DNA from: Bdellovibrionota bacterium
GTDB taxonomy: Bacteria; Bdellovibrionota_C; UBA2361; JBGSMV01
DNA: 17,717 nucleotides
NCBI GenBank assembly: GCA_044356455.1
Contig: JBIKWF010000096.1
Coordinates: 1 to 17,717, forward strand
Direction of reading: 5' to 3'
The position numbers and the translations under genes are program-made. Shown one piece after another: positions 330 through 17,717 of the stretch; position 1 is the first letter of the stretch; every line of letters begins with the position of its first letter. The notes under the pieces are model-generated. The model made no database searches, was not told where the DNA came from, and saw only the letters and a program-made list of their open reading frames with translations.

Positions 330-2147
330 TTACGGCTTCCGCTCTGCGCGGACGGTAGTTTTAGGAAGGGCTGCTCGCGGCGCCTCATCCTTGTGTATCA
401 GAGGAGTCAGCACCTCTTTAAGATCGTCCTCGGTAGGTGCTACTGCGGCAAAGATGATTCTATTGTCAGGGCCCACTATAAAAACGGTGGGAAGTTCCTT
501 AATACCGAGCTCCTGAAAGAGCATCGGGGAGGCGACGTCAAAATGCTGCGAAAAATCCGGGTTTGACGCGATCTTCGCGAGTTTCCCGTCTTTAGTTCCC
601 GTGTCTCTTTCTCCCCCTCCGCAGAGGGAAAGCACAGACACTCCGCTCGCCGAAAGTTCTCGGTGGAGAGTTGAGAGCTTAGGAAGCGCACCAATGCAGG
701 GAGCACACCAAGTTGCCCAGCAATCAACGACAAGATAGCGGCCATCGGTTGATTCGATCTTTCGGCTGCCTGAGAGGGGATCTTTTTTACCGAAGGCTTC
801 TTGCTGCCATGTTCCCCATTCATCACTAGAGAGGGTGAGGGGATGGTCCTGAATGGATTTCCCAAGCAGAGTTTTTTGGAATGATATCTTGCGCGAAATT
901 TCTTGAGCAACCGCTTCGTATCCTTCCCGGACTGCCGCTACCATGTTTACGAAAGGTCTGCTGCTCGGTGCAGTGCTCAGCGCCGTGCTAGGTGAGATCT
1001 CAAGTGGAATAACACCAGAGTCTGCGTCTAGGACCGAGGAGGTGGCGGTGAATTCATAGGTGCGCTGGAAAGGCTTGCCTGTGCGCGAGGTGTTGGGGTT
1101 CTCTGGTGGGTTGTACGATGCGTCGAGGCGTAGTTTTACCACGATGGAATAAGTCGTATTCTCTTTGACGATCGACTTGGTAGCGGAGTCTTTATCTTCT
1201 TGCTCTGCGCCCCCTGTAGCAAGAAAAGGGTACACTTCAATTCGCGAGATTCCCGCTTCGCTAGATTTTGAGAGGCGCGAGAGGCCTGAGCCGACGTGGG
1301 TTCTCGTTGCTTTTTCTGGTGATTCCTTTGAGGCCGTAACCTCATATAGGTCAGCCTGTAGCGTCGCGCCTTGAAGGAATACATGAGAGAGGGAGCGGTC
1401 ACCCTCAAAGTTTACTAATCCTAGTTCAACGCGCGTTACAAGTTGCCCGTTCAGGACACTGTCGGAAACCATGACACCAAACGCGCCGCATATGCGCTGG
1501 TCGAGGACCTCATCTGCCCAATTCGTCGCTTTGTCAGATTGAAAGAACGTATCCTTTGAGGTTTCCTGGATGGTTTTCCAGGCGCTTGCCATAGCGGTCG
1601 CGCGAGAACGGTTCTCATCGAGGCGGCAGGATTCGTGTAGGGTTTCGCTGAGCTGCACTAAGCGAGCGGGGTCATTTCGAGAAGCTTCAAAAAGGGCTTC
1701 GACTACCGCACGGGCAGTTTCCGCGTGCATGCTTCCAGCGGAGGCGGCTGAGACGGCGCGATAGTTCGCAAGTTTGCTCGGCCTAAGGGTCTGCTTGACG
1801 CTTTCGAGAAAAACTTCCTCGCCTGCTTGAGAAGCTTCAGTGTTAATGGTCTCACGCAGTTCTGAATCAGGTCCTGAAGAATCAAACGCCACTTCTCGGA
1901 TAGTAGAGGACTGATTGGTTGGAGCCTCTCTAGAGTCTCGCTCCGCAGCGACTTGGCCGAAAGCACCTAGGGAAGGTACTGCAAGCTGCGCGAGGAGCGC
2001 AAAAAGAGCGGCGGAGCGGGGCTGACTACGCCCAATAGGGGCACTCCCAAGAGGGTAACTGCTAGAGTTAACAGTTCCACTCGGGCCAGAGGGCAAAGAA
2101 GTACCAGATGGCGAAGAAGTAATTATTTGATCTGTTTTCGGGAGCAT
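330..2147 (-). CDS. Exported or membrane-anchored protein with a C-terminal TlpA/ResA-like thioredoxin (thiol-disulfide oxidoreductase) domain and a large uncharacterised N-terminal region
   Basis: 605-aa ORF with GGGGAG RBS upstream. It has a hydrophobic segment SAALFALLAQLAVPSLGAFG, the TlpA motif VVDCWATWCAPC (WATWCAPC at 696-719) and a cis-Pro loop GIKELPTVFIVGPD. Confidence 0.85.
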   Translation of the reverse strand: MLPKTDQIITSSPSGTSLPSGPSGTVNSSSYPLGSAPIGRSQPRSAALFALLAQLAVPSLGAFGQVAAERDSREAPTNQSSTIREVAFDSSGPDSELRETINTEASQAGEEVFLESVKQTLRPSKLANYRAVSAASAGSMHAETARAVVEALFEASRNDPARLVQLSETLHESCRLDENRSRATAMASAWKTIQETSKDTFFQSDKATNWADEVLDQRICGAFGVMVSDSVLNGQLVTRVELGLVNFEGDRSLSHVFLQGATLQADLYEVTASKESPEKATRTHVGSGLSRLSKSSEAGISRIEVYPFLATGGAEQEDKDSATKSIVKENTTYSIVVKLRLDASYNPPENPNTSRTGKPFQRTYEFTATSSVLDADSGVIPLEISPSTALSTAPSSRPFVNMVAAVREGYEAVAQEISRKISFQKTLLGKSIQDHPLTLSSDEWGTWQQEAFGKKDPLSGSRKIESTDGRYLVVDCWATWCAPCIGALPKLSTLHRELSASGVSVLSLCGGGERDTGTKDGKLAKIASNPDFSQHFDVASPMLFQELGIKELPTVFIVGPDNRIIFAAVAPTEDDLKEVLTPLIHKDEAPRAALPKTTVRAERKP

Positions 2148-2290: not shown

Positions 2291-4636
2291 ATGAACACTC
2301 AATCTCATTGTGTAAGGGCTCATTGTGTAAGGGCTCATTGTGTAAGGGCTCATTGTGTAAGGGCTCATTGTGCAAGGGCTCAGCGTGTGAGGCTGCTCTG
2401 CTGTGTAATGATAGCGGTGGTCTGGGGGCTGTGTACCCTAAAACCGCTTGTTGCTGATGAGCAAAATGCCGAAAACTCCGGTCCCGCAGCTGCGAGTTCT
2501 TCCTCCGCAGCGACATTGCCTGAGGAAAATCTTGCACGTGAGGCGCCTAAAGCATCCACGAGGGAAGAGGGAGCATCCTCGGCAAATCTCTTGAAGGAGA
2601 GGGGAGCTACATTTTCTGGCGCCTATACTGATGGGAAGGTAGAGCTTTCGAGCGAAGCAGTTGGGTCTTCCGCCAAGCTCTTTTCTGCTCCCCCGTACGA
2701 CGAGGGGACCTCATGGAATGCCCCTGATACCGTGCGTCTTTCAGGCACCCGTGCCTCGCTTATCATCCGCTTTCCCGAGGCTCGTGTTGTTTCTGCGCTC
2801 GCGCTCCAAGCCGACAATAATGACAGCTATTTTATCGAAGGCTCGGAAGATGGGAGTTCTTGGAAGTTGGTATGGGCAGCGCCTCCTATTTTCAGTCGTC
2901 AGGGACTAATCACCCGTTATCACGTTCTAGATGCTCCTCTTTCCTATCAGCTTTTTAGGCTTAGGCCTGGAATTGGCGACGGGAATTACTCTGTCTCGAG
3001 AGTGTTGCTTTTCCCTCAAGTGCCGCCACGGGTTCCTGCCGGGGTTCAAGAAGGTACGCATCAGGACCTCGTGCGCTATTTTGGCACAGAGGGCTTTGTT
3101 AATCGCCTTAAAGGCTGGACCGCAATGCTGGGGAGTTTGCTTCTCGCGCTAATTGTTGGCTTGACGTGGAAGCCCGAGAGCTTTGATTTTCCTAAGGCTT
3201 TCAAAGTTGCACTTGCCTCACTTGGGATTTTTGGCGCGGCACTTTGGTGGAATCTGGGGAACTTTCACTATCCTTCTTCTGTGCATACATGGGAGCTCTT
3301 TCACTATTACGTGGGAGCTAAGTACTTTCCAGAACTTGGCTATACGCGTCTTTATGACTGCTCCTCGGTAGCTGACCTTGAGGACGGTTTTGCAAGCGGA
3401 GTTCATGCCAATAAAATTAGAAACCTGGCCACGAATGCACTCGAGCCGACGGATAGAATCGTGCGCGCCCCGCGTTCATGTACGGATCATTTTTCGAGTG
3501 AGCGTTGGCGCGCGTTTAAGCGTGATGTGGGTTGGTTTAGAGGCCAGATGGATACGACGCGTTGGAGCGATCTCAAGCGTGACCACGGCTTTAATGGATC
3601 TCCCGTGTGGCTCATCTTGGGAAGGTTATTCTCAGCGGGGGGGACTATTAGTTGGGATAGCGCCTATTTCCTTGTTTCGCTGGATACCCTTTTTCTTGGC
3701 TTACTGTGGGCGCTTGTCTGGAGAGCTTTTGGCTGGCAGTCGGCGTGTGTCGCTGCGCTGGTGTGGGGCACTAATTTCCCGGGGCGCTATTATTGGGTAG
3801 GGGGCTCTCTCCTTAGGCAGGATTGGATGTTTGCCCTGGTGGGCGGGATTTGTTGTTTAAAGCTTGAAAAGATGAGGCTTGGGGGAGCGCTGCTCTGTTA
3901 CTCGGCACTGCTGAGAGTCTTCCCTGGCTTTGCCGGAGTTCCCTTGGTGCTTGGAGTCCTACTCGAAGTGATGCGCCAAAGGCGTATCGTCTGGAATTCT
4001 CCTGGCATAAAATTTCTGCAAGGTGGAATTCTTGCGCTTCTCGTCTTAGTGCCTCTTTCACTTGTTTCATCTGGTCGGTGGTCCGCCTACCAGGAGTTTT
4101 CAGCGAATAGTAAGAAGCATCTTGCAACGCCGCTTACCAATAACATGGGGCTACAAACTATTCTTGGCTACAGCCAGGACGAGCGCGCGCGGGTACTAAA
4201 GGACCCAGCCGCGCTTGAGCCGTTTGCCCTTTGGAAAGAAAGCAGGCTTGAGCATAAGTCCGCTCGCTTTTGGCTCTTTGTGCTGATTGTGGGTGGTTAC
4301 GCCGCGTACATTACGTTTCTTTCAAGGCGACTTGAGCTCTGGGAAACAGCTATCTTGGGGGTTGGTCTTATTCCCTTTGCGGCCGAGCTTACCTGTTACT
4401 ATTACTCTTTCTTGTTGGTGTATGGGCTGCTCTGGAAGAGAGCTCCTGCCATAGGAATGCTTGCGGTGTTACTTGCGTGGGTGACTTGCGAAACCGCAGC
4501 TTCCATCGAATGGACCGATGAGTCGTACACCCTTATGAGTGCTTGGGTACTTGTCTTCGTGGTGCTTGCGGCTTGGCTTATGTCTCGGATTTCAGTTCAG
4601 CGAGATAACCAGGCTCTTCCCTTATCAGAAGCTTGA
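2291..4636 (+). CDS. Polytopic membrane protein: signal peptide, discoidin/F5-8 type C-like domain and GT-C (GT87-like) glycosyltransferase-like domain (paralog A)
   Basis: 781 aa. Signal-like LLCCVMIAVVWGLCTLKPLVA|DE; discoidin-like ALQADNNDSYFIEGSEDGSSW...GDGNYS; a large loop HTWELFHYYVGAKYFPELGY...DHGFNGSPVW; many TM segments; LLRVFP resembling the KxxP motif of GT87 enzymes. The true start may lie downstream of the repeat. The enzymatic call is inference. Confidence 0.7.
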   Translation: MNTQSHCVRAHCVRAHCVRAHCVRAHCARAQRVRLLCCVMIAVVWGLCTLKPLVADEQNAENSGPAAASSSSAATLPEENLAREAPKASTREEGASSANLLKERGATFSGAYTDGKVELSSEAVGSSAKLFSAPPYDEGTSWNAPDTVRLSGTRASLIIRFPEARVVSALALQADNNDSYFIEGSEDGSSWKLVWAAPPIFSRQGLITRYHVLDAPLSYQLFRLRPGIGDGNYSVSRVLLFPQVPPRVPAGVQEGTHQDLVRYFGTEGFVNRLKGWTAMLGSLLLALIVGLTWKPESFDFPKAFKVALASLGIFGAALWWNLGNFHYPSSVHTWELFHYYVGAKYFPELGYTRLYDCSSVADLEDGFASGVHANKIRNLATNALEPTDRIVRAPRSCTDHFSSERWRAFKRDVGWFRGQMDTTRWSDLKRDHGFNGSPVWLILGRLFSAGGTISWDSAYFLVSLDTLFLGLLWALVWRAFGWQSACVAALVWGTNFPGRYYWVGGSLLRQDWMFALVGGICCLKLEKMRLGGALLCYSALLRVFPGFAGVPLVLGVLLEVMRQRRIVWNSPGIKFLQGGILALLVLVPLSLVSSGRWSAYQEFSANSKKHLATPLTNNMGLQTILGYSQDERARVLKDPAALEPFALWKESRLEHKSARFWLFVLIVGGYAAYITFLSRRLELWETAILGVGLIPFAAELTCYYYSFLLVYGLLWKRAPAIGMLAVLLAWVTCETAASIEWTDESYTLMSAWVLVFVVLAAWLMSRISVQRDNQALPLSEA
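2304..2393 (+). repeat. 15-bp tandem repeat CTCATTGTGTAAGGG
   Basis: Four perfect copies (2304-2363), one copy with a single mismatch (2364-2378) and one degenerate copy (2379-2393). No spacers. Encodes (S/A)HCVR x4, AHCAR, AQRVR in the 2291 ORF. Confidence 0.95.
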
Positions 4637-7062
4637 TTGGCCCAGCGCTGGTAGAGCATTACGAAGGCGAGAATACTTATCAGTAAGGCAGTGCTCTGCT
4701 GGGTAAAGCACTCATCAGACTGCGATTCTCGAATCGTAAAATACTGCACAATGAAAAGCCCTCCAAGCGTCAGGGCGATTCCCAGCATGAGATCTCTTGA
4801 GGCGGCACGCTTCCAGGAGAGGGCTACAAGAGGAAAGAGGCACACGAAGTGTAGATAGTAGTTCGCGGGATAGGCCACAATCGGTACTAACGCGAGAGAG
4901 AGCACCGCTGCCGAAGAAGGTGCGGCGCGTGCGCACAAAAGCAAAATAACAAGCGCAAGGACAAGCTGGCCTCCGCGGTACAACAATTGGCGCTCCCCCA
5001 GCACCTTCCAATGGTATTCTTGCCAGTGAATCCAAGGCTCTGGATTGCTCGGATCAATGGTTCGTTGAGCCGTGAAGTCAGGATCGTAGGCCACAATTGT
5101 GCGCCAAGAAACTGAGTTCACATTTGGCTTCGAGGCGTGTTCTGCAATCTTCTCTCCCCAGATTCCCCACGACTGATGATAGGAAAACGCGGCCACGGGG
5201 AGGGCTGCGAGCACGAGTGCGGAGCAGGTGAAGCTTAGTGCAAATGCGCCAAAGCCTGATGTTCTTAGAGTATGTAATGAAGGTAGCCGACGAGCTGATA
5301 AGGCGCGGCTGAGGTGCGGCCAGCCAAGTGCCATAAAAGTCCCTGCGGCCGCCATAATGGGAAACACACGTATCAGTGCGGCAAGGGCCAGAAAAAAACC
5401 GGCGAGGCGGAAGCGGCGTACTTTGAGCGCGCAAATGCCAAAGATCAGCGCGACGAGCCAATCATGCCGAAGCGTAGCTCCCAGCCAGTGGGACCCAAAA
5501 TAAGGGAAATCGGTTGACCCAAAGAGAGCAAGAGCGAGTAGGGCAGGAATCCCTCCAAATACTCTGGCAATAGTTATGAACCCAAGCGCCAGAAGGACTA
5601 TGTCTATTAGACCCGCGGCAGTCAGTACGACATCGCTAGCGGAGAAAGGAGAGAGTATCGCGTGGGCAATAAACATCCATAGGGGTGTTGCGTTGCCGCC
5701 GTGGTCGGCATGGGTCCCAAGATAATCGCTATCTCCCATAATGCGGAGGAAGTAGCCCATGTCTGAAACAAAGGATTGCCAACGTTCGAGGCTAAACCGG
5801 TCTCGAATCTCTTTTACTTGATCTTGTACTTTCTCGGCCGTGGTAACGGAGTAATTGTGGAGGTCTCGCACGCGCACGTTACTCATTTCTCGAACAGAAA
5901 CACCCCTTAGGTCCTCATAGGCTGCAAGGCTTGCGAGGTACACGCCGTCATAGCCAAGTTCGGGGAAATACTTGGCGGTGGGATGATAGATGCGCATATC
6001 GAACGTGTGCACCCACCTTGAGCCTTCGGGTCCCTGACCTCGAAAGTGCGTGCTGCCATAGACGAGAAAGTTAAGGGCGGAAAGAAGCGCGACCCCGGAG
6101 AGGATGATGGTGAGCGCGTTCTTTCGAATTCTTAGCGTCAGAGCGGCGAGGCAGGTTATCACGATAAAGAGTGCCAGCAGAGCGCGCTGGAGCTGCATGG
6201 TTTGACGGGGAATATCTGCCTCCATGCCAAAGCGCCAGGCCAGGTAACAGCCGCACGCAAGAACAAGGCCCGCGCCAAGAATCTGCGAGAGGGGCGCGAT
6301 TCGCGAAGTAGAGGCAGTTCTGCAGGTAGCTACGAGCACGATGATAAGGAGACTGCACCATATGAGGTGCATGAGCAGTGCGTCGCTGTGAAAGGTGGAG
6401 AGGCGCGTAATTTCAATTGCGGGATACTTCTCAGCGCAGGAGGCTAAGATTTCCGCGATGCTGTAGAGACCGTCTCCAAGGACGGTGGTCACGCGAAGAC
6501 TTCGGTAAGGTCCTCGTGCGGTGCTGAGAGTAACGGCGCGAGTTCTTAGTCCCGCACCTGCCGCGCGCTCGGCAACCCATATTCGCTCATACAGACCACT
6601 CTCAATCTCTCCTTCAAAGACATAGGAGTCGTTGTTATCTGCTTGGATTAGAAAAGAGCGCAAAACTTGGGGAGACAAAAAGGAGAATGTAAGAGTTCTT
6701 TCTTCTTGGGTGAGTACTTTGGCGAGCGGACTATTCCAGGACGTTCCTTCCGGCGCAGCAAACCCGTCGACGAGCCTTGGGTCCACAAGATTTGCGCTTA
6801 AGGTGCCATCGCGCAGTAAGTTTACGGGTGCACAGTCAGCTGCCGGTGGTGTGTCTTGGGGAGGGGAGGCTGATTCGTCTGCCTGGGCGAAGCCCCCGTA
6901 CAGAGTTAAAAGCCCGAGAAGAGTGAGAAGTGCCGCGTGCCCGAGAATGTGCAAAAGGCGCGACGTTATCTTGCAACCGATATTCGAGGTTGCGTGAGCT
7001 GCCGAATCAAACGTGAAGCCGCTACTCCCGAAGGCATTGAATTCTCTTTCCTTCGTGTCCAT
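4597..7062 (-). CDS. Polytopic membrane protein: signal peptide, discoidin-like domain and GT-C (GT87-like) domain (paralog B)
   Basis: The ORF is open to 7218, but the ATG at 7062 (MDTKE, 821 aa) has an AAGGA RBS. Signal-like AALLTLLGLLTLYGGFAQA|DE. Shares QADNNDSY (6622-6645), GDGxYS, AKYFPELGY (5950-5976), FSxERW, DHGxNxxPxW, LRxDW and RVFP with paralog A. Confidence 0.7.
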   Translation of the reverse strand: MDTKEREFNAFGSSGFTFDSAAHATSNIGCKITSRLLHILGHAALLTLLGLLTLYGGFAQADESASPPQDTPPAADCAPVNLLRDGTLSANLVDPRLVDGFAAPEGTSWNSPLAKVLTQEERTLTFSFLSPQVLRSFLIQADNNDSYVFEGEIESGLYERIWVAERAAGAGLRTRAVTLSTARGPYRSLRVTTVLGDGLYSIAEILASCAEKYPAIEITRLSTFHSDALLMHLIWCSLLIIVLVATCRTASTSRIAPLSQILGAGLVLACGCYLAWRFGMEADIPRQTMQLQRALLALFIVITCLAALTLRIRKNALTIILSGVALLSALNFLVYGSTHFRGQGPEGSRWVHTFDMRIYHPTAKYFPELGYDGVYLASLAAYEDLRGVSVREMSNVRVRDLHNYSVTTAEKVQDQVKEIRDRFSLERWQSFVSDMGYFLRIMGDSDYLGTHADHGGNATPLWMFIAHAILSPFSASDVVLTAAGLIDIVLLALGFITIARVFGGIPALLALALFGSTDFPYFGSHWLGATLRHDWLVALIFGICALKVRRFRLAGFFLALAALIRVFPIMAAAGTFMALGWPHLSRALSARRLPSLHTLRTSGFGAFALSFTCSALVLAALPVAAFSYHQSWGIWGEKIAEHASKPNVNSVSWRTIVAYDPDFTAQRTIDPSNPEPWIHWQEYHWKVLGERQLLYRGGQLVLALVILLLCARAAPSSAAVLSLALVPIVAYPANYYLHFVCLFPLVALSWKRAASRDLMLGIALTLGGLFIVQYFTIRESQSDECFTQQSTALLISILAFVMLYQRWANQASDKGRAWLSR

Positions 7063-7282
7063 TGCGTCCTTCGCGTTACAATTTTCGCTCTCGAAACGCC
7101 CGTAAATTGACAGGAAGGTCAACCCGGCATTTCTACAAACAAAGGAACTTACGGTCCGAGCGAAGGACTCCATAAGGCGAGGAAAGGGGGAGAGCGCAGC
7201 GCGTAAGCTTGCCGTCATAATAACCGTGCGTTATAGCAGCCGCAGACGCTAGATTGCCAATTAAAACATCAGGAACGCGGCC

Positions 7283-9180: not shown

Positions 9181-9243
9181 AAAATCATTTGCTCAATGTT
9201 AGGTTTTGATAAGGCAATGTATCGCACAGCAGCGACCATGTGC

Positions 9244-9273
9244 GAAAACTTTTTTACATGAAAAAAATTTTTC
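9244..9273. promoter_or_regulatory. AT-rich imperfect dyad centred on CATG in the divergent intergenic region (candidate UP element or regulator site)
   Basis: gaaaacttttttacatgaaaaaaatttttc. A -35-like TTGAAT follows at 9276-9281, but there is no convincing -10 at canonical spacing. Confidence 0.35.
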
Positions 9274-9350
9274 TCTTGAATTCCGAATACGACAGGTCTA
9301 GATAGTGCGGCGTGGGGTGATGGACTCGCGTTCCTAGTAACGAGCGTTTC

Positions 9351-9386
9351 AGTAAACGAAACAGTCGTAGTAAACGAAACAGTCGC
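9351..9386 (+). repeat. 18-bp tandem duplication AGTAAACGAAACAGTCG(T/C)
   Basis: Copies at 9351-9368 and 9369-9386, 17 of 18 positions identical. Confidence 0.9.
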
Positions 9387-9722
9387 AGTCGTTCGAGGCG
9401 AAGGTCGTTTTAAATTGGCGTACTCAAGAATTGCAACGTAGTGAGTTGCGACGCGCGGTCTTCAAACGTTCTTTGCGCAATTACATTGGATCATAGGTGC
9501 GCGGCTTTACGTGCTGCTGAGGCTTGAAGTGGTGAGCTCTCAGAGAAGATCTGTCCGCAGCTCTGCGGAGGGGGGCTTTTGGCCTTCTTCCTGCTGAGGA
9601 GCGGAGGATTTTCTCATCAGTATCGTTTGCCGAGCATCTAGAAGCTTTTCACGGGGTAATAAGGCCTCACGGGGAAGTTGTATCCAGCGCAAAGAGGATC
9701 CCGCATTTTGATGGGGTAGCGC

Positions 9723-12700
9723 ATGCGACAAAGGTGGATTCCCACCCGTAGCACTTCGTTCAGTAGTATCCTCTTCAGGAGTGCTGTTTTAGCAGTTTTT
9801 TTATTACTTTGCGGATTGACCCAGCCAGAGTGCTCTAAGGCGGATCTGCCGCCCCTTGCAACTTACGATAAGTTTGAACCCTACCACCGCGGCGGCCCGC
9901 TTGAGCATTCATTCTACGATGACATAAATCTTTTCGAGCGCAGTCTCTTCGGCGTGAGCTATGCCGTAGGTCCGGTTGAGCTTCAGTATGACGAGTCCTA
10001 CGCAGAATCCAGCTCTTCCTATGCATCTAATGTCGCCGGGAATTTTACCTTCAAAGCCTACAGCTTTGTGAATGGACTGCAGCTTGGACTCCCGGTAGTC
10101 GATGGCTCAAGTGTCCGTGACGGAACTTTTCGATACTCCCTCGGTAACCCGCAGCAAGCGGAAGCTGGATGGGACTATTCGTTTCGGACTCTCACCGAGA
10201 GTGGCCGCTACGTTCTTGTCGAGTTTACAGGAGGACAGCGGGTCCTCGATGATACGCTTCTCAGTATTCGCTATGACCTGACTGCGAGTGCGTCTTACCC
10301 TTGGGTTCTGCTCCCGACGCGAGCTCATTTCCCCGATGGAGAAGAAGCAGTTATCGAGTGGAACGCGGCCGATTCAACGGCTTCTCGAGCTATCCCGACG
10401 CGCATGACTCTTTCCAAGAACGGTTTGGAAATTGAAAGAGTGGAATTCGATTGGACAACGACCGCTCCGTATCGCCTAAACCGAGTTCGTAGCTTAGTAG
10501 GGGGAGCAAGCCAGTATTGGCGTTGGGTGAGTCTTGAGTACGGGACTACCGCACTTCAGCCGCTCGTAAAGCTTGTAAGGGTTACTCTTGGGGGAACTTC
10601 CTCGGCGCCGTTTGCTGCAGGGATTGTGCGCTCAGGGCTTGTGTTCGCGTATCAGGTGGCGGGCACCAAGGACATCATCTCTGGAATTTCAAACTTTCAG
10701 GGAAAAACTCTGAAGACGTTTCTTTTTTCTTCGGGCCAAGCGGTCCCGACAGGGCCGATTAGGACATTGTACACGGGACTTCGTCTCGGCACTTCAGGAC
10801 AGCAAGCAACAACTTTTGGATATACCCCATCAATTAATCTTCAAGACCGACTCGTATCGATTACAAGGCCCCAGGTTCCGAATGATGCGTTGACGGTAAG
10901 ACTTCATGGGACGCGCGGCTCCTCTGTGGAGGAACGTAGGGCTTCATGTCCTGCGCCGCTTAGGTTGGTAGAGTTTCTTCAGGCCGGGCCTCTTGCCGGA
11001 CTTGTTAACCGTGAAACGCTGAGGCCAAGTTGCTCAACCCCGCTCATTATTGACTATCGCTACGGCACGACGGGCTCGATTGAAGAAGTGGTGATGTCGG
11101 GACGTGACTCTTCGGGTGCTCTTGTCAGCCGAACTACGACTATGCGCTCAGAGAAGCGCACGGATCCCAACGGACTGCGCAGACTTTTGCTCACTGAGAA
11201 GACTGATGCTCTTGGGAATACGACGCGCTGGTCATATGACTCAAATGCGCGTATCCGCAGCGAAGAGTATGTTCCGGACGGAATACAATCGGATATTGCC
11301 TATACCTACTGGGATAGTGGCCAGAGGCATGTGCGTTCCGCGCGTTTTCTTGACGCTAACGGCCGCGAAGATACCGTGGAATATGACCAGCGTGGCTTTC
11401 TTATCCGCGAGACCGCTGCGAAAGGCACGAGTCTAGAGGCGTCCAGTACCTGGGCCTATGACTCGGCATTTCGGCCTGAGGTCTATACCGATGTGCGCGG
11501 CAAGACCACACGCTTTTCTTACCTCCCTGACGGCCGTTTGCAATCGGGGGTAACGAGTGCTCCGAGCGGCCTCTCTAGAGTTTCCACTACGATCCAATAT
11601 CACGCGGATTTCCCCCAGGAAGTCACGAGAGAAGAGAACCGTGTGCGTGAATCTGGCGGAGAGGTTACGAGCTGGATGGAGTGGAACTATGTGCCGAACC
11701 TCCCGTTGGTATACCAGACGCGGATGGGGGGAGACGGGGTTGCTCAGCCAATTACCCTTCTTGAGGCGCAGTACGACCCCGCCACTCTGCGACTACAGCG
11801 CATGTGTCAATACAAGTCGCCGTCATCAAATGAAGGATGTGATTCATTCTCCTACTACCCTTCAGGATCGGGACTTAAAACTGGCCTCCTGCAGAAGATT
11901 GATGTGGCGGGAGGATCCGCAGCAGGCGGTCTTCGCAAGACGTTTCTCTATGACACCTTCTCAGATTATTTAGGAACGACGTGGGATGATGGTGTTGAAG
12001 TTAAAACCCTGACTGAAGAGCTTGATGATTTTGGCCAGGTAGCCCGGGTATTTGTGAATCCTGGAGAGGGCATAAACGAGGAGCGCCTAACCTACTCGTT
12101 TGACCGCAATAATAAACTCACCCGTCAGCAGCGCTATTTTGGAGGTGTGCTTATTAGCGATGTTCAGGCGGGGTACGATGATAACGGACGAAGTTATAGG
12201 CCAACCTTTGTCACTGAGTCGGTATCTGGTAGCCAGAGTATCTTTTATTACAACGATTCTCTAAAGCGCCTTACTGGACAAGAAACGTTTACGAGCGGCG
12301 GACTGCGAGCCACGGCGCTTTCCATTGATGCAGGGAATCTTGATGTACTCGATAGACCCTGGTTTATCGAGAAATTCCTTGATGGCCGGGGACAGAGCGC
12401 TCTTGCTTATACCTATGACAGAAAGGGAGACGTAAGAACTGTTAGGGACGAACTCGGAAATTTAATGGAATTTGAGTACGATTCGTTCGGGCGCAGCATT
12501 AGCGGCCAAACGGAGCTTGTTTCTTCCGCTCAGTCGTATGCCGTAATTGGAAGTTCAGTACTCAACACTCTTGTCACCTCCAACCGTGTTTCGAATCCAG
12601 CCTTAGAGCAGACTCAAGAGACGGTGAGCGCAGTAGACGCACTCGGGCGAATTGTGCGTGTCGAAGACGTCAACAATGGCACCCGGGTCGAGAACTCCTT

Positions 12701-14009
12701 TAATGCCCGAGGATTTACTACCTCACAAGTTTATACCTTAGCCGATGCTTCGACTCGTTCCTTTAATTACGGATTCGATGCACTGGGAAGGATGGTGTCT
12801 GCTTCACTTAATGGTGGGAACTTGTTAGGGCGCACCTTCTCGGGACTTGGACGACTACTCGCGACGAGAGATGCACGTCAGAACCAGACTTCTTTTCAAT
12901 ATGACAGGCTAGGGAGAACTTCACACATCACTTATCCCGATGGCTCTCAAAGTAGGCTCATTTCAGCCACCAATTTCTATCCCCCTCAGCCGAACGGGGC
13001 TGTCTTTCGCGCGAACTACGTGGACCGTGGAGGAGCTACGGTAACTACGGAGGTGAATTCCTTGGGCAAGATTGTGCGTATGCAATCCACCGGAGGGAGC
13101 TTGGAGAACGCTTCTACCGACTTTGTTTATTCGGGCCATCGTTTATCCTCACTGTCGCAAACCTCTCCGCGAGGAAGTTCCGCACTTACCGTCGGGTATG
13201 ATGGTGCGGGCCGGGCTACTTCGGAGAGAACGCAAGTGTGGTCTAGTTTGCAGAACCTTGATTTCACGCTCTCTAGGGAGTTTGATCAGTTAGGACGTGT
13301 CGTGGGGCATCTCTACCCCGATGGCATGTGGTCCTATGCCTATTACGAGCGCGATAGTTTGGGTCGTATCATCCGAATTTGGTTCAATGGTTCACCAGTC
13401 GCGGAATACAACTACGACGGACCGGTGCTTACTGGGGTAGCCCTTGGAGACGTTGCAAGAACGTTTACCTACGATGCGGATCATGGACAGGTCTCAGAGG
13501 TACTTGACCGAGTTGGCGCCTCAACGCTCACGCAGTTGCGCCTCGAGTATGATTCAAAGGGTAGGATTAGCTCACGAACGGATCGCGGAGTCCGGCGAGG
13601 GAACCTGCCGCAGCTCTCAGAGTCCCTGGCGTACTCGAATGATGACTACCTTTCAGTCTATTCATTTTCATCGCCGCTGTTTGGCACAGGTAGTCGCTCC
13701 TACATGCCCCAGCCCGATGCAATTCTTGGGGCGGTGAGTCCTTCTGTCGACTCTATGTTCCAGCTTCCTGCTCGGTTTACCTATGACAATTATGGAAATC
13801 CGAGAACAGAGTCTAGCTACGGACGTTCCTTTCAGTGGACTCGAAGTGGCTTAAGGCGCCTCTCTGCGCCTGAGGTGACTGCAGATTTCGTGCAGGATGC
13901 CCTGCGCAGAACAGTTTGGATCAGTAAAACGCTTCCTCTCTTTACTCGCGATATTTTTCAAGTTCGTGAAGAGGGCATGGTTCTTGTCCAAGAGGAGGTA
14001 AACCGGTGA
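9723..14009 (+). CDS. RHS/YD-repeat shell protein with predicted Sec signal peptide, lacking the Rhs-associated core and toxin tip
   Basis: 1428 aa. N-terminal ILFRSAVLAVFLLLCGL...SKA|D. Many YD repeats (TDALGNTTRWSYDSNAR, YDQRGFL, YTYDRKGD...DELGNLMEFEYDSFGR, FDALGRM, YDRLGRTSHITYPDG, FDQLGRV). It ends QDALRRTVWISKT...VLVQEEVNR* with no terminal PxxxxDPxGL. No PAAR or VgrG-type N-terminus was recognised. Confidence 0.92.
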   Translation: MRQRWIPTRSTSFSSILFRSAVLAVFLLLCGLTQPECSKADLPPLATYDKFEPYHRGGPLEHSFYDDINLFERSLFGVSYAVGPVELQYDESYAESSSSYASNVAGNFTFKAYSFVNGLQLGLPVVDGSSVRDGTFRYSLGNPQQAEAGWDYSFRTLTESGRYVLVEFTGGQRVLDDTLLSIRYDLTASASYPWVLLPTRAHFPDGEEAVIEWNAADSTASRAIPTRMTLSKNGLEIERVEFDWTTTAPYRLNRVRSLVGGASQYWRWVSLEYGTTALQPLVKLVRVTLGGTSSAPFAAGIVRSGLVFAYQVAGTKDIISGISNFQGKTLKTFLFSSGQAVPTGPIRTLYTGLRLGTSGQQATTFGYTPSINLQDRLVSITRPQVPNDALTVRLHGTRGSSVEERRASCPAPLRLVEFLQAGPLAGLVNRETLRPSCSTPLIIDYRYGTTGSIEEVVMSGRDSSGALVSRTTTMRSEKRTDPNGLRRLLLTEKTDALGNTTRWSYDSNARIRSEEYVPDGIQSDIAYTYWDSGQRHVRSARFLDANGREDTVEYDQRGFLIRETAAKGTSLEASSTWAYDSAFRPEVYTDVRGKTTRFSYLPDGRLQSGVTSAPSGLSRVSTTIQYHADFPQEVTREENRVRESGGEVTSWMEWNYVPNLPLVYQTRMGGDGVAQPITLLEAQYDPATLRLQRMCQYKSPSSNEGCDSFSYYPSGSGLKTGLLQKIDVAGGSAAGGLRKTFLYDTFSDYLGTTWDDGVEVKTLTEELDDFGQVARVFVNPGEGINEERLTYSFDRNNKLTRQQRYFGGVLISDVQAGYDDNGRSYRPTFVTESVSGSQSIFYYNDSLKRLTGQETFTSGGLRATALSIDAGNLDVLDRPWFIEKFLDGRGQSALAYTYDRKGDVRTVRDELGNLMEFEYDSFGRSISGQTELVSSAQSYAVIGSSVLNTLVTSNRVSNPALEQTQETVSAVDALGRIVRVEDVNNGTRVENSFNARGFTTSQVYTLADASTRSFNYGFDALGRMVSASLNGGNLLGRTFSGLGRLLATRDARQNQTSFQYDRLGRTSHITYPDGSQSRLISATNFYPPQPNGAVFRANYVDRGGATVTTEVNSLGKIVRMQSTGGSLENASTDFVYSGHRLSSLSQTSPRGSSALTVGYDGAGRATSERTQVWSSLQNLDFTLSREFDQLGRVVGHLYPDGMWSYAYYERDSLGRIIRIWFNGSPVAEYNYDGPVLTGVALGDVARTFTYDADHGQVSEVLDRVGASTLTQLRLEYDSKGRISSRTDRGVRRGNLPQLSESLAYSNDDYLSVYSFSSPLFGTGSRSYMPQPDAILGAVSPSVDSMFQLPARFTYDNYGNPRTESSYGRSFQWTRSGLRRLSAPEVTADFVQDALRRTVWISKTLPLFTRDIFQVREEGMVLVQEEVNR
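13993..13998 (+). promoter_or_regulatory. Consensus Shine-Dalgarno for the 14006 GTG start
   Basis: AGGAGG lies 7 nt upstream of the GTG, which overlaps the upstream TGA (GTGA, 14006-14009). Confidence 0.85.
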
Positions 14010-17000
14010 GCATTTCAATACTTTCACAAAAAGTTACTTCAGCAGTTCGCCTGTTGCTCGCTGCGGGCGCAGCTTCTTGCCTTGGCCTCTCCCTGTGCTT
14101 AGAGGTGACGCCGGCCTCAGGCCAATCTCCCGGGCCTGTTCACCAGTATGATTATGCCACGGTAGTGCCAGAGGTTCCCGACGAGGAGCCACCTCAGTCT
14201 AAGCAAGTGAGAACGGTCTACAACCCGGATACGGGAACTCCCATCGTAAGTTTTGTAAACTATGGTGGGGCTCAGTACTCGTTCTATCACCTCACTGATG
14301 CAACCAGTAATACCACCCTGGTTCTGCGAGACCCTGCGCGTAATCTTACCATTCCTCTGCACTATCCTGATGTGTACCCCTCGATCCCTGAGGTCTCAGG
14401 AGTCTATGCTGCCTTCTCGCCAATTCTTCCGACTCTAGGAACGGGAGCTTTAAGTTGTGATAGGGCCCTTCAGAGTTGTGTCGCTGACCGTCGAGTAGTT
14501 GATGCGCGACGATTGGGGCAGGGAGGCACCCTTCGGTTTCTTTCACCCGATCCACTAGGGCGCGCCGACAGCGCGAATCCCTACCAGTACACCACTGAGC
14601 GTGGAGTGTATCCCGTTACCTTTGCCGATCCTCAGGGCCTTTCCGTAACAGACGAAGCGCTCAACGCTCGTGCTGAAATGAACGCTATGCGCGCAGCAGA
14701 GCGTGCGCAGCGCGAGGCTGCGTATGCGCAGAGCGCGGCGGGACAACGAGCAGCTCAGCAGGCCGAAAGGCAGCGACAATCTGAGCAGCAAACGTCTGCT
14801 CAGGTGATGCAGAAGCAGTTTGCTGACAACTCCTACGGTTGGAACGTAGTGAGCTTCACCTTCTATGAGATGTTCCCTTATTTCTCGGCATTTTCTGAGA
14901 GTGGGCGCACGTATCAGATCACCGCCCCCGTAGTGCGAGGCGAAACAGACATCATGGGAGCGATGGATCAGTTCGCTACGGCAGCGACCATTGATGCCAT
15001 CACGATGCCGATTGGTGCTGGTTCAACAAAAGCGATTGCGGGAGCAGTTGAGCGCCAGATTCTGAAAGAGGGCGTGGGTATGGCCGAAGTCCGCCTCGCA
15101 CGGTCCATCGAGAGGGCGGTGGTACGCGGCGAGTTTGACAACGGCATTCCAAGCACCGTGCGTAATATTGTGGGCGACGAAGCAACCTTTCAAGGGCGAG
15201 CAAACTGGCGTCAAGCTGCTGACGGATCGATTGTATCCAACGAAAAACTTTCAGAGGTCATGCGCAAGAATGACGGCGTCATGATGAATCGCAATAAGGT
15301 CACCAGCGAGCTTGGTGACATGTCTCGCGCTGATATGGCGCAGGCAGTTCGCAAGAACCCGCAAGATTTAATGTATGCGTCACGCGATCCTAATGTTGCG
15401 ATTGACTATACCGGCAAGTATCAGGTGCCTGATCTTGGAATTGCGCCCTACAAGCCAGGACATGGGCCACTTCCCGGCCTCGAGAAAATTAATGGGGGAT
15501 ACGGAGAAGTTGCGATCGGCCTTCCTACGCGGCATGGCCGCATAAATGTGCCGGATCAGATCTCGGCGGAGAGCGAGGTATTTAGCAGGGGAAATAGACT
15601 TTTTGGCTCCTGGGATGCGGGCTTTACCAAGACTTCGGATGGGGTCACGCGGTGGTCTCGTAACTTCCGAATAAACGAAGCCAACCCTGCTTTTAATAAG
15701 GCGCTGCAGTCTGAAGTGAGCTCACTCGGTAGAGCAGCGGGAGTATGGTTTCCCACCTTGGGCGGACTCGCCTCTACTCAAGCACACAACTTGCTCAACA
15801 ATCCTAATGTAAGTGACCTCTACAAAAACGGAGCAGGATCCGGCGGCGGCGGCACTGGCGGAAGTGGTGGGACTGGTGGCACGGGTGGAACTGGAGGTAC
15901 CGGCGGAACAGGCGGCAGCGGCGGAGCTGGAGGTTCGGGCGGATCAGGCGGCAGTGGTGGCATGGGCGGAAACGGCGGCACCGGAGGAGACGGCGGATCT
16001 GGTGGTATGGGTGGCAGCGGCGGATCAGGAGGCTCAGGTGGGAGCGGTGGGTCTGGCGGGTCCGGTGGTAATGGCGGAACTGGTGGAACCGGCGGAAATG
16101 GCGGCTCGGGTGGTATGGGCGGATCCGGCGGTAGCGGCGGGTCTGGTGGCAGTGGTGGATCTGGAGGCAGTGGTGGATCTGGAGGGATGGGTGGAAATGG
16201 AGGCTCTGGAGGAAACGGCGGGTCTGGCGGCTCAGGTGGAAGTGGTGGCTCTGGCGGATCCGGTGGCATGGGTGGCTCCGGAGGTAACGGAGGATCTGGC
16301 GGCTCGGGCGGTGAAGGCGGCATGGGCGGCGACGGTGGCATGGGTGGTGCCGGCGGATTTGGTGGCATTGGTGGAATTGGCGGAGACGGCGGTTCCGGCG
16401 GAAATGGTGGCAACGGCGGCATGGGAGGTTACGGCGGCGTAGGTGGCCAAGGAGGAAACGGCGGAAACGGAGGAACTGGCGGCACAGGCGGCACCGGTGG
16501 GACCGGCGGTATGGGCGGCATGGGAGGCATGGGCGGTGCCGGAGGTATGGGAGGAATGGGCGGCACTGGAGGCAGTGGCGGATCAGGCGGCGCCGGAGGA
16601 ATGGGCGGCGCAGGTGGAATGGGTGGCATGGGAGGAATGGGCGGTGCCGGAGGAATGGGCGGCACGGGCGGATCTGGCGGAGACGGCGGAAGCGGCGGCG
16701 CCGGAGGTATGGGCGGCATGGGAGGTATGGGAGGTGCTGGCGGCATGGGTGGCATGGGTGGCATGGGCGGCACTGGAGGTACTGGCGGTGAAGGGGGCCA
16801 GGGTGGTGAAGGTGGTCAAGGAGGCGAAGGCGGCCAAGGTGGAGAAGGCGGCCAAGGTGGGCAGGGTGGCCAAGGCGGCATGTCGCAATGTCAGGGCTTG
16901 CCTCCTGAGCAGCGCGCAAAGTGTGAATGGTGCACGCAGCATGGGTATCAGTATGGCTCGTATGAATGCGACTTTTGGTACTGGTGGTGCCATCTCTTTA

Positions 17001-17305
17001 GCAACCAGTCACAAAGTCCTAGAAATGGGAGCTCCCCACTAGGAGAATCAGATCCCGCAATCTCGAACATGCAAGAGCTGATGGGTGTTCCTAGTGAGGC
17101 TTCGGCGAGGCTCTCGGCGACGCTACGCAAACGGCTACCTCAATTAACAGAGGAGCAGCTGTTCTACGTCTCAATAGAGCTTAACTCTGCATTTGCGGCC
17201 AACGATTTGTCGCGCGTCTCACGATCAACAAAAGCAGTAATTAACTTAGGGTGTGGGGATCCGGTGCCGGCAAAACCTGCCCCGATCGATCAGCCAATGC
17301 GCTGA
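14006..17305 (+). CDS. RHS repeat-associated core protein with its own signal peptide and a long C-terminal cargo (putative toxin domain, GGX repeat, Cys/Trp module)
   Basis: 1099 aa. Signal-like residues 1-39 (AVRLLLAAGAASCLGLSLCLEVTPASG|Q). Rhs strands VYNPDTGTP...FYHLTDATSN. Core signature RFLSPDPLGRADSANPYQY...PVTFADPQGL at 14534-14641, followed by 887 further residues. Confidence 0.9.
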   Translation: MSISILSQKVTSAVRLLLAAGAASCLGLSLCLEVTPASGQSPGPVHQYDYATVVPEVPDEEPPQSKQVRTVYNPDTGTPIVSFVNYGGAQYSFYHLTDATSNTTLVLRDPARNLTIPLHYPDVYPSIPEVSGVYAAFSPILPTLGTGALSCDRALQSCVADRRVVDARRLGQGGTLRFLSPDPLGRADSANPYQYTTERGVYPVTFADPQGLSVTDEALNARAEMNAMRAAERAQREAAYAQSAAGQRAAQQAERQRQSEQQTSAQVMQKQFADNSYGWNVVSFTFYEMFPYFSAFSESGRTYQITAPVVRGETDIMGAMDQFATAATIDAITMPIGAGSTKAIAGAVERQILKEGVGMAEVRLARSIERAVVRGEFDNGIPSTVRNIVGDEATFQGRANWRQAADGSIVSNEKLSEVMRKNDGVMMNRNKVTSELGDMSRADMAQAVRKNPQDLMYASRDPNVAIDYTGKYQVPDLGIAPYKPGHGPLPGLEKINGGYGEVAIGLPTRHGRINVPDQISAESEVFSRGNRLFGSWDAGFTKTSDGVTRWSRNFRINEANPAFNKALQSEVSSLGRAAGVWFPTLGGLASTQAHNLLNNPNVSDLYKNGAGSGGGGTGGSGGTGGTGGTGGTGGTGGSGGAGGSGGSGGSGGMGGNGGTGGDGGSGGMGGSGGSGGSGGSGGSGGSGGNGGTGGTGGNGGSGGMGGSGGSGGSGGSGGSGGSGGSGGMGGNGGSGGNGGSGGSGGSGGSGGSGGMGGSGGNGGSGGSGGEGGMGGDGGMGGAGGFGGIGGIGGDGGSGGNGGNGGMGGYGGVGGQGGNGGNGGTGGTGGTGGTGGMGGMGGMGGAGGMGGMGGTGGSGGSGGAGGMGGAGGMGGMGGMGGAGGMGGTGGSGGDGGSGGAGGMGGMGGMGGAGGMGGMGGMGGTGGTGGEGGQGGEGGQGGEGGQGGEGGQGGQGGQGGMSQCQGLPPEQRAKCEWCTQHGYQYGSYECDFWYWWCHLFSNQSQSPRNGSSPLGESDPAISNMQELMGVPSEASARLSATLRKRLPQLTEEQLFYVSIELNSAFAANDLSRVSRSTKAVINLGCGDPVPAKPAPIDQPMR
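15830..16882 (+). repeat. Coding glycine-rich (GGX)n repeat of about 350 aa
   Basis: Residues 609-959 of the 14006 ORF form essentially uninterrupted GGX triplets (X = S, T, M, N, A, D, E, Q; rarely F, I, Y, V). Glycine codons are mixed GGC/GGT/GGA/GGG. Confidence 0.97.
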
Positions 17306-17389: not shown

Positions 17390-17717
17390 ATGTATTTTGA
17401 AAGATTAGTGCGTTTCTTGGCCGTTGGCCTTGTCGCTGCAGTCTTGGGGGTTAGTAGCGCATCTGCTCAGTGGGCGCCCGGAGAGGAAGCCGCTGTGGGT
17501 ACGCTTGTGCAGTATCTTCAAGATACCTACGGCGTCCAGCTTGTAGAGCAAACGCAGCCGGCTGCGGACATCGTCTGCCAAAGTGGGGGTACCTGCACTG
17601 CGAAAATAGGTAGCCAGAACTATCCCTGTACTTGTGGTGGTGGCAGTACCTGCTCAGCGGGGCAATCCTGTGTCTGCACCTGCTCGTGGACTGGCTCCAA
17701 TCCTAACACGCTTTCGT
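17390..17717 (+). CDS. Secreted cysteine-rich protein (3' truncated by the window edge; not in the ORF track)
   Basis: Manual translation gives MYFERLVRFLAVGLVAAVLGVSSASA|QWAPGEEAAVGTLVQYLQDTYGVQLVEQTQPAADIVCQSGGTCTAKIGSQNYPCTCGGGSTCSAGQSCVCTCSWTGSNPNTLS... It has an AAGGGA RBS, a classic Sec signal with A-S-A cleavage site, and 8 Cys. Confidence 0.85.
   Translation, partial: MYFERLVRFLAVGLVAAVLGVSSASAQWAPGEEAAVGTLVQYLQDTYGVQLVEQTQPAADIVCQSGGTCTAKIGSQNYPCTCGGGSTCSAGQSCVCTCSWTGSNPNTLS

Follow-up and report, generated by a model that had tools for sequence, protein, structure and literature searches.

The stretch of DNA analysed here, referred to as the window, is the entire 17,717-bp contig JBIKWF010000096.1 (C68) of a metagenome-assembled genome (MAG) from a Bdellovibrionota bacterium (G000; 4.7 Mb, 216 contigs, 93% complete), and its forward strand carries two adjacent open reading frames (ORFs) that divide an Rhs/YD protein between them. 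ORF1 encodes the shell, P0001, and ORF2 encodes the core/cargo subunit, P0002. As judged from sequence, this two-gene architecture is very probably a real evolved split, and the features on which that judgement turns are the following.

9723..14009, forward strand: ORF1, the shell gene (P0001, 1428 aa), with leader, plug-like region and YD-repeat beta-shell
9723..9842, forward strand: signal-peptide-like shell leader, residues 1-40; n-region +4, uncharged run 20-33, and SKA/D before the conserved LPPL
13993..13998, forward strand: Shine-Dalgarno sequence AGGAGG inside the end of ORF1, with a 7-nt spacer to the ORF2 start
14006..14009, forward strand: GTGA overlap (ORF2 GTG 14006-14008, ORF1 TGA 14007-14009)
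14006..17305, forward strand: ORF2, the core/cargo gene (P0002, 1099 aa), with three split homologues and one fused homologue by HMMER
14006..14122, forward strand: ORF2 leader, residues 1-39; n-region +2, uncharged run 16-32 (17 residues), ending PASG/Q
14123..14212, forward strand: Pro/acidic linker, residues 40-69 (6 Pro, 5 Asp/Glu)
14201..14641, forward strand: last shell strands and Rhs core/plug, residues 66-212, placed by the second half of TIGR03696 and by family and solved-core alignments
14549-14551, forward strand: D182, putative catalytic dyad
14627-14629, forward strand: D208, putative catalytic dyad

Shell, core and relatives

The shell is recognized by the profiles RHS_repeat PF05593 (E 4e-24) and TIGR01643 (E 1e-22), and its YD/RHS repeats are predicted to form a beta-shell both by fold alignment and in the complex model described below, where the shell has a predicted local distance difference test (pLDDT) score of 82-85. 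An AlphaFold2 (AF2) model of ORF1 residues 41-700, built on a 5-row alignment, has a mean pLDDT of 67.8 and is all-beta from about residue 175. Its best fold matches are the N-terminal halves of Rhs cocoons of the T6SS (type VI secretion system) class, with Z of 14-17; the top VIA match is 8qjd_B (Z 17.3, root-mean-square deviation 3.8, 475 aligned), residues 289-828 of RhsA 7q97 score Z 16.1, and TcB/TcC chains and teneurins score Z 10-11 and Z 7-11, respectively. The N-terminal plug of RhsA is placed at residues 268-386 by PMC8765631, and ORF1 may have a plug of this kind, its residues 41-170 being poorly modelled.

Both ends of the shell are informative. The database gene call for ORF1 (P0008, 1397 aa) starts 31 codons later and thus lacks the hydrophobic run of the leader; the start at 9723 is favoured because such a run is conserved in the related shells, standing directly before the conserved LPPL or the mature start in four of four (P0001, P0009, P0007 and P0128). 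At the C-terminus the protein closes with ...FVQDALRRTVWISKTLPLFTRDIFQVREEGMVLVQEEVNR, and it stops at the very point where the strands usually running into the Rhs core would begin.

Relatives of the second gene were sought with P0002 residues 1-235 as query in an exhaustive HMMER search of 1.84 billion representative proteins, which returned four in all: P0003 (884 aa), P0004 (1008 aa), P0005 (1205 aa) and P0006 (1776 aa). The homologous region is N-terminal, after a hydrophobic leader, in P0003, P0004 and P0005, and lies at residues 1412-1556 in P0006. DNA context is available for three loci, namely the window, L003 (from a MAG labelled Bdellovibrionota) and L006 (a metagenome contig), and identity of the relatives to the window pair is 28-55%.

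Within ORF2 the motif order VYNPDTGTP, FYHLTDATSN, RFLSPDPLG and PVTFADPQGL is confirmed as the first-pass annotation of the window had read it. Besides the Rhs core, residues 66-212 hold the strands that come after the ...YDxxGRRxxK... strands when an Rhs protein is a single chain. TIGR03696, the Rhs core profile, matches P0002 by its second half only (profile 41-76, residues 174-212), at 24.2 bits and hence below its curated cut-off of 32.5 bits. At the level of sequence P0002 does carry an aspartyl dyad and the PxxxxDPxG(L/W/F) motif, here P203xxxxD208PQGL212, with a predicted cut after L212. D182, P183, G185, D208 and G211 are invariant in all five family members, and a family profile run against solved chains finds the same C-terminal motif in 12 of 13 matches, all weak (E 0.0035-0.4); the chains matched at the motif are 8h8a, 7q97, 7pq5, 8qjc, TcdB2-TccC3, YenC2 and DddA. 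In RhsA, as given in PMC8765631, D1324 and D1346 form the catalytic dyad and cleavage follows PxxxxDPxG(W/L/F). D182 and D208 appear to correspond to these two residues, as mapped from the profile alignment and our own count of the construct offset.

The junction between the two genes

The junction anatomy, with AGGAGG, a GTG over the TGA, a 39-aa leader and a Pro/acidic linker, lies as the first-pass annotation had placed it, and the GTG/TGA overlap is read here as translational coupling of ORF1 and ORF2. Relative to ORF1, ORF2 is read in the -1 frame. A stop closes the ORF2 frame 13 codons upstream of its GTG, and the frame of ORF1 meets more stops just past its TGA, so that no single indel elsewhere would yield one clean ORF without the leader. 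The GTG at 14006 is the earliest possible ORF2 start past that upstream stop. Between it and the conserved strand just two more in-frame starts occur, namely a TTG at codon 17 and a GTG at codon 34, and no Shine-Dalgarno sequence is recognizable for either.

One alternative is that the split arose from faulty assembly or sequencing, or that a single Rhs gene has recently suffered a pseudogenizing frameshift, and two circumstances lend it some weight: the source is a MAG of 216 contigs, and the other Rhs locus of the genome (C147) is broken by an in-frame TGA. Logan contigs from four lake-water metagenome runs (X2-X5, the probable source run not being among them) were placed on 13500-14700. Contigs from three of these runs bridge position 14006 with 0 differences, 0 gaps and at least 31 nt on each side (X2 13554-14700, X3 13745-14336, X4 13965-14250), at depths that are low (up to 7) and in runs that may stem from one campaign; the contig from X5, which reaches only to 14025 (20 nt beyond the junction), is not counted as bridging. 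An indel over the junction, which had been named earlier as the point to check, is thus absent from the bridging contigs. With the ORF2 frame closed upstream, and with the same breakpoint, leader and ribosome-binding site recurring around different junction DNA in relatives of 28-55% identity, an error or a decaying gene is very improbable.

The recurrence of the breakpoint can be followed on both sides of the junction. On the shell side the stop position is common to all four related shells (P0001, P0009, P0007 and P0128), with the pattern ...GMVL.Q.E.. directly before the stop: ORF1 ends in ...EGMVLVQEEVNR, P0009 (55% identical to ORF1) in ...SGMVLFQNEVNR, P0007 in ...RGMVLYQRETLE and P0128 in ...EGMPLWQELRE. 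The search for homologous pairs with this breakpoint, also proposed earlier, found L003 and L006. At L003 the shell gene (2525-6844) ends in TAG and is followed by 12 nt, including AAGGAG 6 nt before the start, and then, with the frame unchanged, by the P0003 start codon ATG at 6857. At L006 the shell gene (2590-6825) is separated by a 4-nt gap from the ATG of P0005 at 6830, which lies in the +1 frame behind a weaker GAGAG. The junction DNA therefore differs among all three loci and the frame relation is -1 in the window, 0 in L003 and +1 in L006; three junction sequences with three frame relations exclude a shared frameshift artefact as well as a common recoding mechanism.

The same comparison bears on the idea that a single fused protein is made after all, by programmed frameshifting or stop read-through, with the leader as an internal loop. 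L003 offers it an opening, its ORFs lying in the same frame with one TAG and four sense codons between them. Against this stand the three frame relations, the lack of an evident slippery heptamer at 13970-14006, the separate start codon of each ORF2 (preceded by a strong Shine-Dalgarno sequence in two of three loci and by the weaker GAGAG in L006) and a fused relative that has no such hydrophobic insert, and recoding is scarcely credible.

That fused relative, P0006, is the only family member in which the shell, core and toxin lie in one polypeptide; in the window, L003 and L006 they do not. Its residues 310-1407 are collinear with ORF1 347-1424 (26% identity, E 4e-41), and the protein corresponds to ORF1 plus ORF2 from residue 67, with 4 residues in place of the stop, the start and the leader-plus-linker, a segment of 38-69 residues in the split forms (66 in ORF2). 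As the same architecture recurs in independent sequences, the pattern goes beyond chance. The earlier view of an evolved split rather than a frameshift has accordingly gained in strength, with the same breakpoint in four of four shells and four of four leader-bearing core proteins, and with a fused homologue that is leader-less.

Export, docking and the location of the cargo

The ORF2 leader is a probable Sec signal peptide, and PASG/Q suggests cleavage after residue 39. All four core subunits have leaders with an n-region of +2 to +4 and an uncharged run of 17, 21, 26 and 21 residues in P0002 to P0005, respectively; the leader sequences are not conserved among them, and in each a polar linker follows before the first conserved strand, TV(Y/F)xPD. 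The leader could also be an uncleaved signal anchor, in which case the shell would dock onto a core subunit tethered to the inner membrane, within the periplasm, and the cocoon would be fixed to the membrane instead of being soluble and secreted. The uncharged runs are within the range of transmembrane helices and the flexible linker of 27-30 residues after the leader would suit such a tether, while the small residues at -3/-1 after the leaders (PASG/Q, SHA/W, SFS/Q) and the Gly/Pro helix breakers in the h-regions favour cleavage. An anchored core subunit is considered unlikely, and it nevertheless holds most of the probability that is left beside the full mechanism set out below.

Whether the two chains belong together was approached by a complex model, in which shell residues 600-1428 (24-row alignment) and ORF2 residues 62-215 (5-row alignment) were combined. 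Three runs gave ipSAE of 0.81, 0.82 and 0.85, compared with 0.00 in each of three controls; the partner has a pLDDT of 66-76, and at least 75% of contacts are common to the runs. Among solved complexes 116 of 157 attain the ipSAE mark used, as do 2 of 215 mismatched pairs, a calibration that is only rough where alignments are self-made. In the modelled interface ORF2 residues 63-194 lie against shell residues 1193-1428, and the contacts predicted with most certainty join shell residues 1421-1423 to ORF2 residues 68-70, continuing the beta-sheet. The model supports binding of the two chains without showing it, and the complex prediction that the first-pass annotation had put forward as a check comes out as docking by strand pairing (ipSAE 0.82 against 0.00 in the controls).

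Behind the core, ORF2 continues with three further features.

14642..15811, forward strand: variable cargo domain, residues 213-602, 42.4 kDa; long Ala/Gln/Arg/Glu helix at ~213-275; shared only with P0003
15812..16912, forward strand: Gly-rich low-complexity tether, residues 603-969; 235 Gly of 367 (64%), in GGS/GGM/GGT/GGN triplets
16913..17302, forward strand: C-terminal Cys/Trp-rich module, residues 970-1099, 14.6 kDa; no family match

A variable C-terminal region thus begins right after the core motif. BLASTP with the first 620-650 residues shows homology between ORF2 and P0003 across residues 1-615 (34% identity, E 2e-84), and homology of ORF2 to P0004, P0005 and P0006 ends at DPxG(L/T); at E <= 1 nothing in P0005, P0006 or P0002 matches the middle domain of P0004. 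This stop of homology marks the cargo as polymorphic, as at the boundaries of polymorphic toxins. The post-core parts of P0002, P0003, P0004 and P0005 measure 887, 671, 834 and 1000 aa, and in all four split forms they share one layout: a variable domain of ~370-430 aa, a low-complexity tether and a C-terminal module. The tether is Gly-rich in P0002 (367 aa), Ser-rich in P0003 (230), Thr/Pro-rich in P0004 (~63) and Thr-rich in P0005 (92), and the fused P0006 has 219 aa (24.3 kDa) past the core without a tether. In the window the tether DNA is made of imperfect tandem repeats of 9, 18, 27, 45 and 54 nt, the length of which is possibly mis-assembled, the source being a short-read MAG.

Pfam and NCBIfam scans of the post-core region of ORF2 matched no family. 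With E up to 10 in Pfam, DUF4781 (E 0.025) and DUF5894 (E 0.4) appear on pieces of the cargo and were rejected, and a TNT/DUF4237 label offered by ESM Atlas clusters (0.77) was not adopted, since shuffled proteins score alike. An AF2 model of the cargo domain from a 2-row alignment (pLDDT 33.8) is unusable except for the first helix. Elsewhere in the family, the cargo of P0005 (L006 6830-10447) contains an HEVAH (HExxH) motif, and P0004 and P0005 end in 4-6 repeats of ~90 aa (YYYWVKA...) that have no Pfam family match and are homologous between the two (E 1.5e-14).

The size of this region sets a limit on how the system can work. Solved cocoons enclose from ~15 kDa (three-turn Rhs) to ~30 kDa (four-turn Tc), and teneurin cocoons are empty with the C-terminal domain outside, as described in PMC8765631. 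At 887 aa and 84.5 kDa the post-core piece of ORF2 is far above that range and could not be enclosed whole, so that the classical encapsulation logic fails as such, and the 42.4-kDa first cargo domain alone would already exceed known enclosed cargos. The ordinary encapsulated cargo assumed in the first-pass annotation is not supported at this size.

The same figures are an argument for another reading, in which the two products do not assemble: the shell would be an empty scaffold or adhesin of teneurin type and ORF2 an independent secreted protein with an Rhs-core relic. A cargo of 887 aa is far too big to enclose, the teneurins of PMC8765631 provide the precedent of an empty cocoon with a toxin-like domain outside, and the match to the core hidden Markov model is weak. 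The pair is, on the other hand, adjacent and coupled in all three loci with context, its breakpoint is exactly conserved, ORF2 carries just those strands and that plug which are missing from the shell, the complex model reaches 0.82 where the controls give 0.00, and the catalytic dyad is invariant. Two independent proteins are an improbable outcome of these observations.

The sequences show directly how the genes are arranged and that this arrangement is conserved, and they show the fused homologue, the conserved catalytic motif and the polymorphic boundary; that the chains are exported, dock and are cleaved, where the cargo lies, and that the system serves antagonism or predation are inferred. 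The preferred reading is a naturally split Sec-type Rhs/YD polymorphic-toxin cocoon made by two coupled genes, and as a full mechanism it is given somewhat better than even credence. The first gene would supply the wall of the shell, equipped with a separate signal peptide and, at its N-terminus, a region resembling a plug. The second would supply another exported chain, the mature N-terminus of which would contribute the last beta-strands and an inward-spiralling Rhs core acting as C-terminal plug and aspartyl autoprotease, followed by an effector domain that varies with lineage, the long tether and the C-terminal module. Both chains would cross the inner membrane unfolded via Sec; the shell would then fold in the periplasm or beyond, and the core subunit would dock by beta-strand complementation (1421-1423 with 68-70), plugging the C-terminal mouth of the shell. 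D182 and D208 would next cut after L212, freeing the 84.5-kDa effector-tether-module piece, of which at most the first cargo domain would lie in the cocoon, with the tether and C-terminal module outside. The complex, which might be released by a secretin pathway or in vesicles, would do its work of antagonism or predation outside the cell.

A bolder form of this reading, in which a cocoon assembled in trans after separate Sec export constitutes a new structural class of Rhs, a machine-free tethered toxin particle, is offered tentatively and is more doubtful than the mechanism itself. In such a particle the plug/autoprotease subunit would close a shell made beforehand; it could sequester only the variable ~42-kDa domain, or no cargo at all, and could connect it by a tether of 63-367 residues to an external binding module; it could be used by uncultured relatives of predatory bacteria.

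Several observations weigh against the split-cocoon mechanism. Beside the oversized cargo, P0002 falls short of the curated cut-off for the TIGR03696 core, and cleavage may vary within the family, as judged from Thr at P1 in P0004 and P0006 and DSRGL instead of DPxGL in P0005. For signals that are cleaved, uncharged runs of 17-26 aa are on the long side, and they may instead serve as anchors in the membrane. The docking score may be explained by likeness to solved single-chain Rhs cocoons alone, and the core-subunit alignment used for it has 5 rows only. The family is tiny, with every 90% cluster a singleton and all members from uncultured organisms, and no conserved neighbour or immunity gene is shared among the window, L003 and L006.

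Known cocoons and genome context

The closest parallel to the pair is TcB-TcC (TcdB2-TccC3, YenB-YenC2), in which two genes likewise encode the chains of one cocoon. The differences lie in the breakpoint, in the leaders, in the Tc-specific domains not found here and in the size of the cargo. TcC brings a large part of the shell, whereas ORF2 brings the last strands and plug only (residues 66-212, ~147 aa). Sec-type leaders stand on both chains here, no SpvB, TcdB_midN or beta-propeller signature was found, and the cargo of 671-1000 aa with a tether compares with ~30 kDa. A further likeness is that the second Tc chain combines an Rhs core aspartyl autoprotease with a hypervariable effector (PMC8765631). 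Alternative C subunits exist for Tc toxins (PMC11067744), and Tc subunits assemble in the cytoplasm and exit by lysis of a cell subpopulation that depends on the type 10 secretion system (T10SS) (PMC10847048).

It may be asked whether the window encodes outright a BC pair like TcB/TcC, belonging to an ABC (Tc) toxin complex, given a cocoon on two polypeptides with the core and variable region on the second, and given TcB/TcC chains among the fold matches (Z 10-11) and the motif matches. The TcB-type domains SpvB and TcdB_midN were not found in P0001 or in the 93%-complete genome; the share of ORF2 is ~147 residues instead of roughly one third of the shell, leaders stand on both chains, and the best fold matches are T6SS-class Rhs (Z 16-17). 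A true Tc pair is therefore highly improbable. A search for VRP1 (TcA) is uninformative on TcA, as its control matched in no genome.

Single-chain T6SS Rhs proteins (P. protegens RhsA, Tre23-Rhs, Tse5, RhsP, and those of S. bongori and A. mimigardefordensis) are the best shell matches (Z 14-17) and share the PxxxxDPxG(L/W/F) motif, two catalytic Asp and a polymorphic boundary past the motif. They are single polypeptides with a PAAR/VgrG mounting, no signal peptide and an enclosed cargo of ~15 kDa, whereas the window has two chains with leaders, an 84.5-kDa cargo and no sheath gene found in the genome. No PAAR family appears in the Pfam scan of P0001 at E <= 0.01, the N-terminus carrying a leader instead, and VipB/TssC (the T6SS sheath) has no match in the 93%-complete G000; the mounting N-terminus and the T6SS that would be expected of a T6SS effector were thus not found. 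SpvB and TcdB_midN likewise have no match in G000, and absences from a genome of this completeness are not proof. Two secretins are present.

WapA is a Sec-exported single-chain YD-shell toxin. Orphan rhs-CT or C-terminal displacement modules start in the conserved core-encoding region and hold alternative toxins; they are without an export signal of their own and are usually silent recombination substrates. ORF2, in contrast, comes with a leader, a start codon and a ribosome-binding site, and its shell has no other core. Bacterial teneurin-like proteins (TLPs) are enriched in predatory and social bacteria, as stated in PMC13018210. Like WapA, they resemble the window pair in having a Sec-type signal, a YD shell, a polymorphic C-terminal toxin and no dedicated injection machine, and they differ in being single chains with one signal peptide and a C-terminal domain of ~15 kDa on average. 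The window has a second probable signal peptide at the shell/core boundary. TLPs also have an FN-plug and NHL superfold (PMC13018210); no NHL family was found in the Pfam scan of P0001 at E <= 0.01, and TLP 9ifo_A is in the Foldseek list (E 1.7e-13, TMq 0.41) and not among the top VIA rows, shell residues 41-170 being poorly modelled. Teneurins, finally, have a YD shell with a C-terminal plug region and a large C-terminal part outside, a precedent for unenclosed cargo (PMC8765631), and are unlike the window pair in lacking autoproteolysis and in being single-chain eukaryotic type II membrane proteins.

Full-text literature searches, in a collection that mostly leaves out subscription journals, turned up no account of an Rhs split in two with a signal peptide on each chain, and a search for Rhs with Bdellovibrio gave only unrelated matches in titles and abstracts. 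The general view is that Rhs and Tc cocoons, be they one chain or a TcB-TcC pair, take up their toxin in the cytoplasm as they fold. A conserved split with a probable export signal on the chain that bears the plug, autoprotease and cargo suggests that closure of a cocoon in trans could take place beyond the cytoplasm, and the cargo here is 3-6 times larger than any known enclosed cargo. If trans assembly is true, Rhs encapsulation would need neither one-chain synthesis nor cytoplasmic assembly. The split would also be a tractable two-piece system in which to study folding, plugging and the triggering of cleavage in YD shells, and it would add an architecture free of a delivery machine to the polymorphic-toxin repertoire of uncultured Bdellovibrionota-like bacteria.

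The distribution of the family qualifies what had first been proposed for it. Among the 124 genomes of the phylum set it is strong only in G000 and G067, with three others matching the generic core motif only. G067 is the L003 genome by coordinates, and taxonomy places it in one genus with G000; the shells of the two are nevertheless ~35% identical, the core subunits 34-46%, and the neighbourhoods differ. Low identity and unrelated neighbourhoods within a genus suggest, at the sequence level, rapid diversification or independent acquisition, and such divergence fits fast-evolving conflict genes. Searches of G000 by tblastn with P0001 and three pieces of P0002 gave self-matches only, with no spare core or cargo gene. 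The first-pass annotation had envisaged a bipartite system in which a generic shell receives an exchangeable subunit, and had proposed a search for further signal-peptide-plus-core genes in the same genome. The evolved two-gene Rhs stands and docking of its chains is upheld as modelled; the generic, exchangeable design finds no support, as the split-type core gene is single in the genome and the shell and core diverge together.

The only other YD locus of G000 is C147:19319-23887 on the reverse strand, a one-chain leader-bearing Rhs with a full-scoring core (TIGR03696, 63.6 bits) and a tail of ~110 aa. An in-frame TGA at 21590-21592, between ...FDSYSLL and DVLEES..., divides it into halves of 765 and 756 aa; TGA is otherwise a normal stop in G000, closing 466 of ~2000 long ORFs.

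Upstream of the shell gene, 9181-9722 is a gene-free stretch of 540 bp with a short direct repeat, agtaaacgaaacagtcg, in two copies at ~9351-9385. No promoter-like site was scored within it, and the promoter/terminator scan gave nothing above the shuffle expectation and no terminator between ORF1 and ORF2. Downstream of ORF2 a further ORF on the forward strand (17390-17716) runs off the contig end; its product is Cys/Gly-rich, has no family match and begins with a leader ending ...VSSASA/QW, and it could be a periplasmic immunity or partner protein. Farther upstream, two convergent ORFs at 2291-4636 (forward strand, 781 aa) and 4597-7218 (reverse strand, 873 aa) have a 40-nt 3' overlap and no credible Pfam or NCBIfam match. 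The 605-aa product of 330-2147 (reverse strand) has no family match in its N-terminal 450 aa and shows, in its C-terminal ~110 residues, a thioredoxin/TlpA/ResA-like domain that scores below or near the curated cut-offs.

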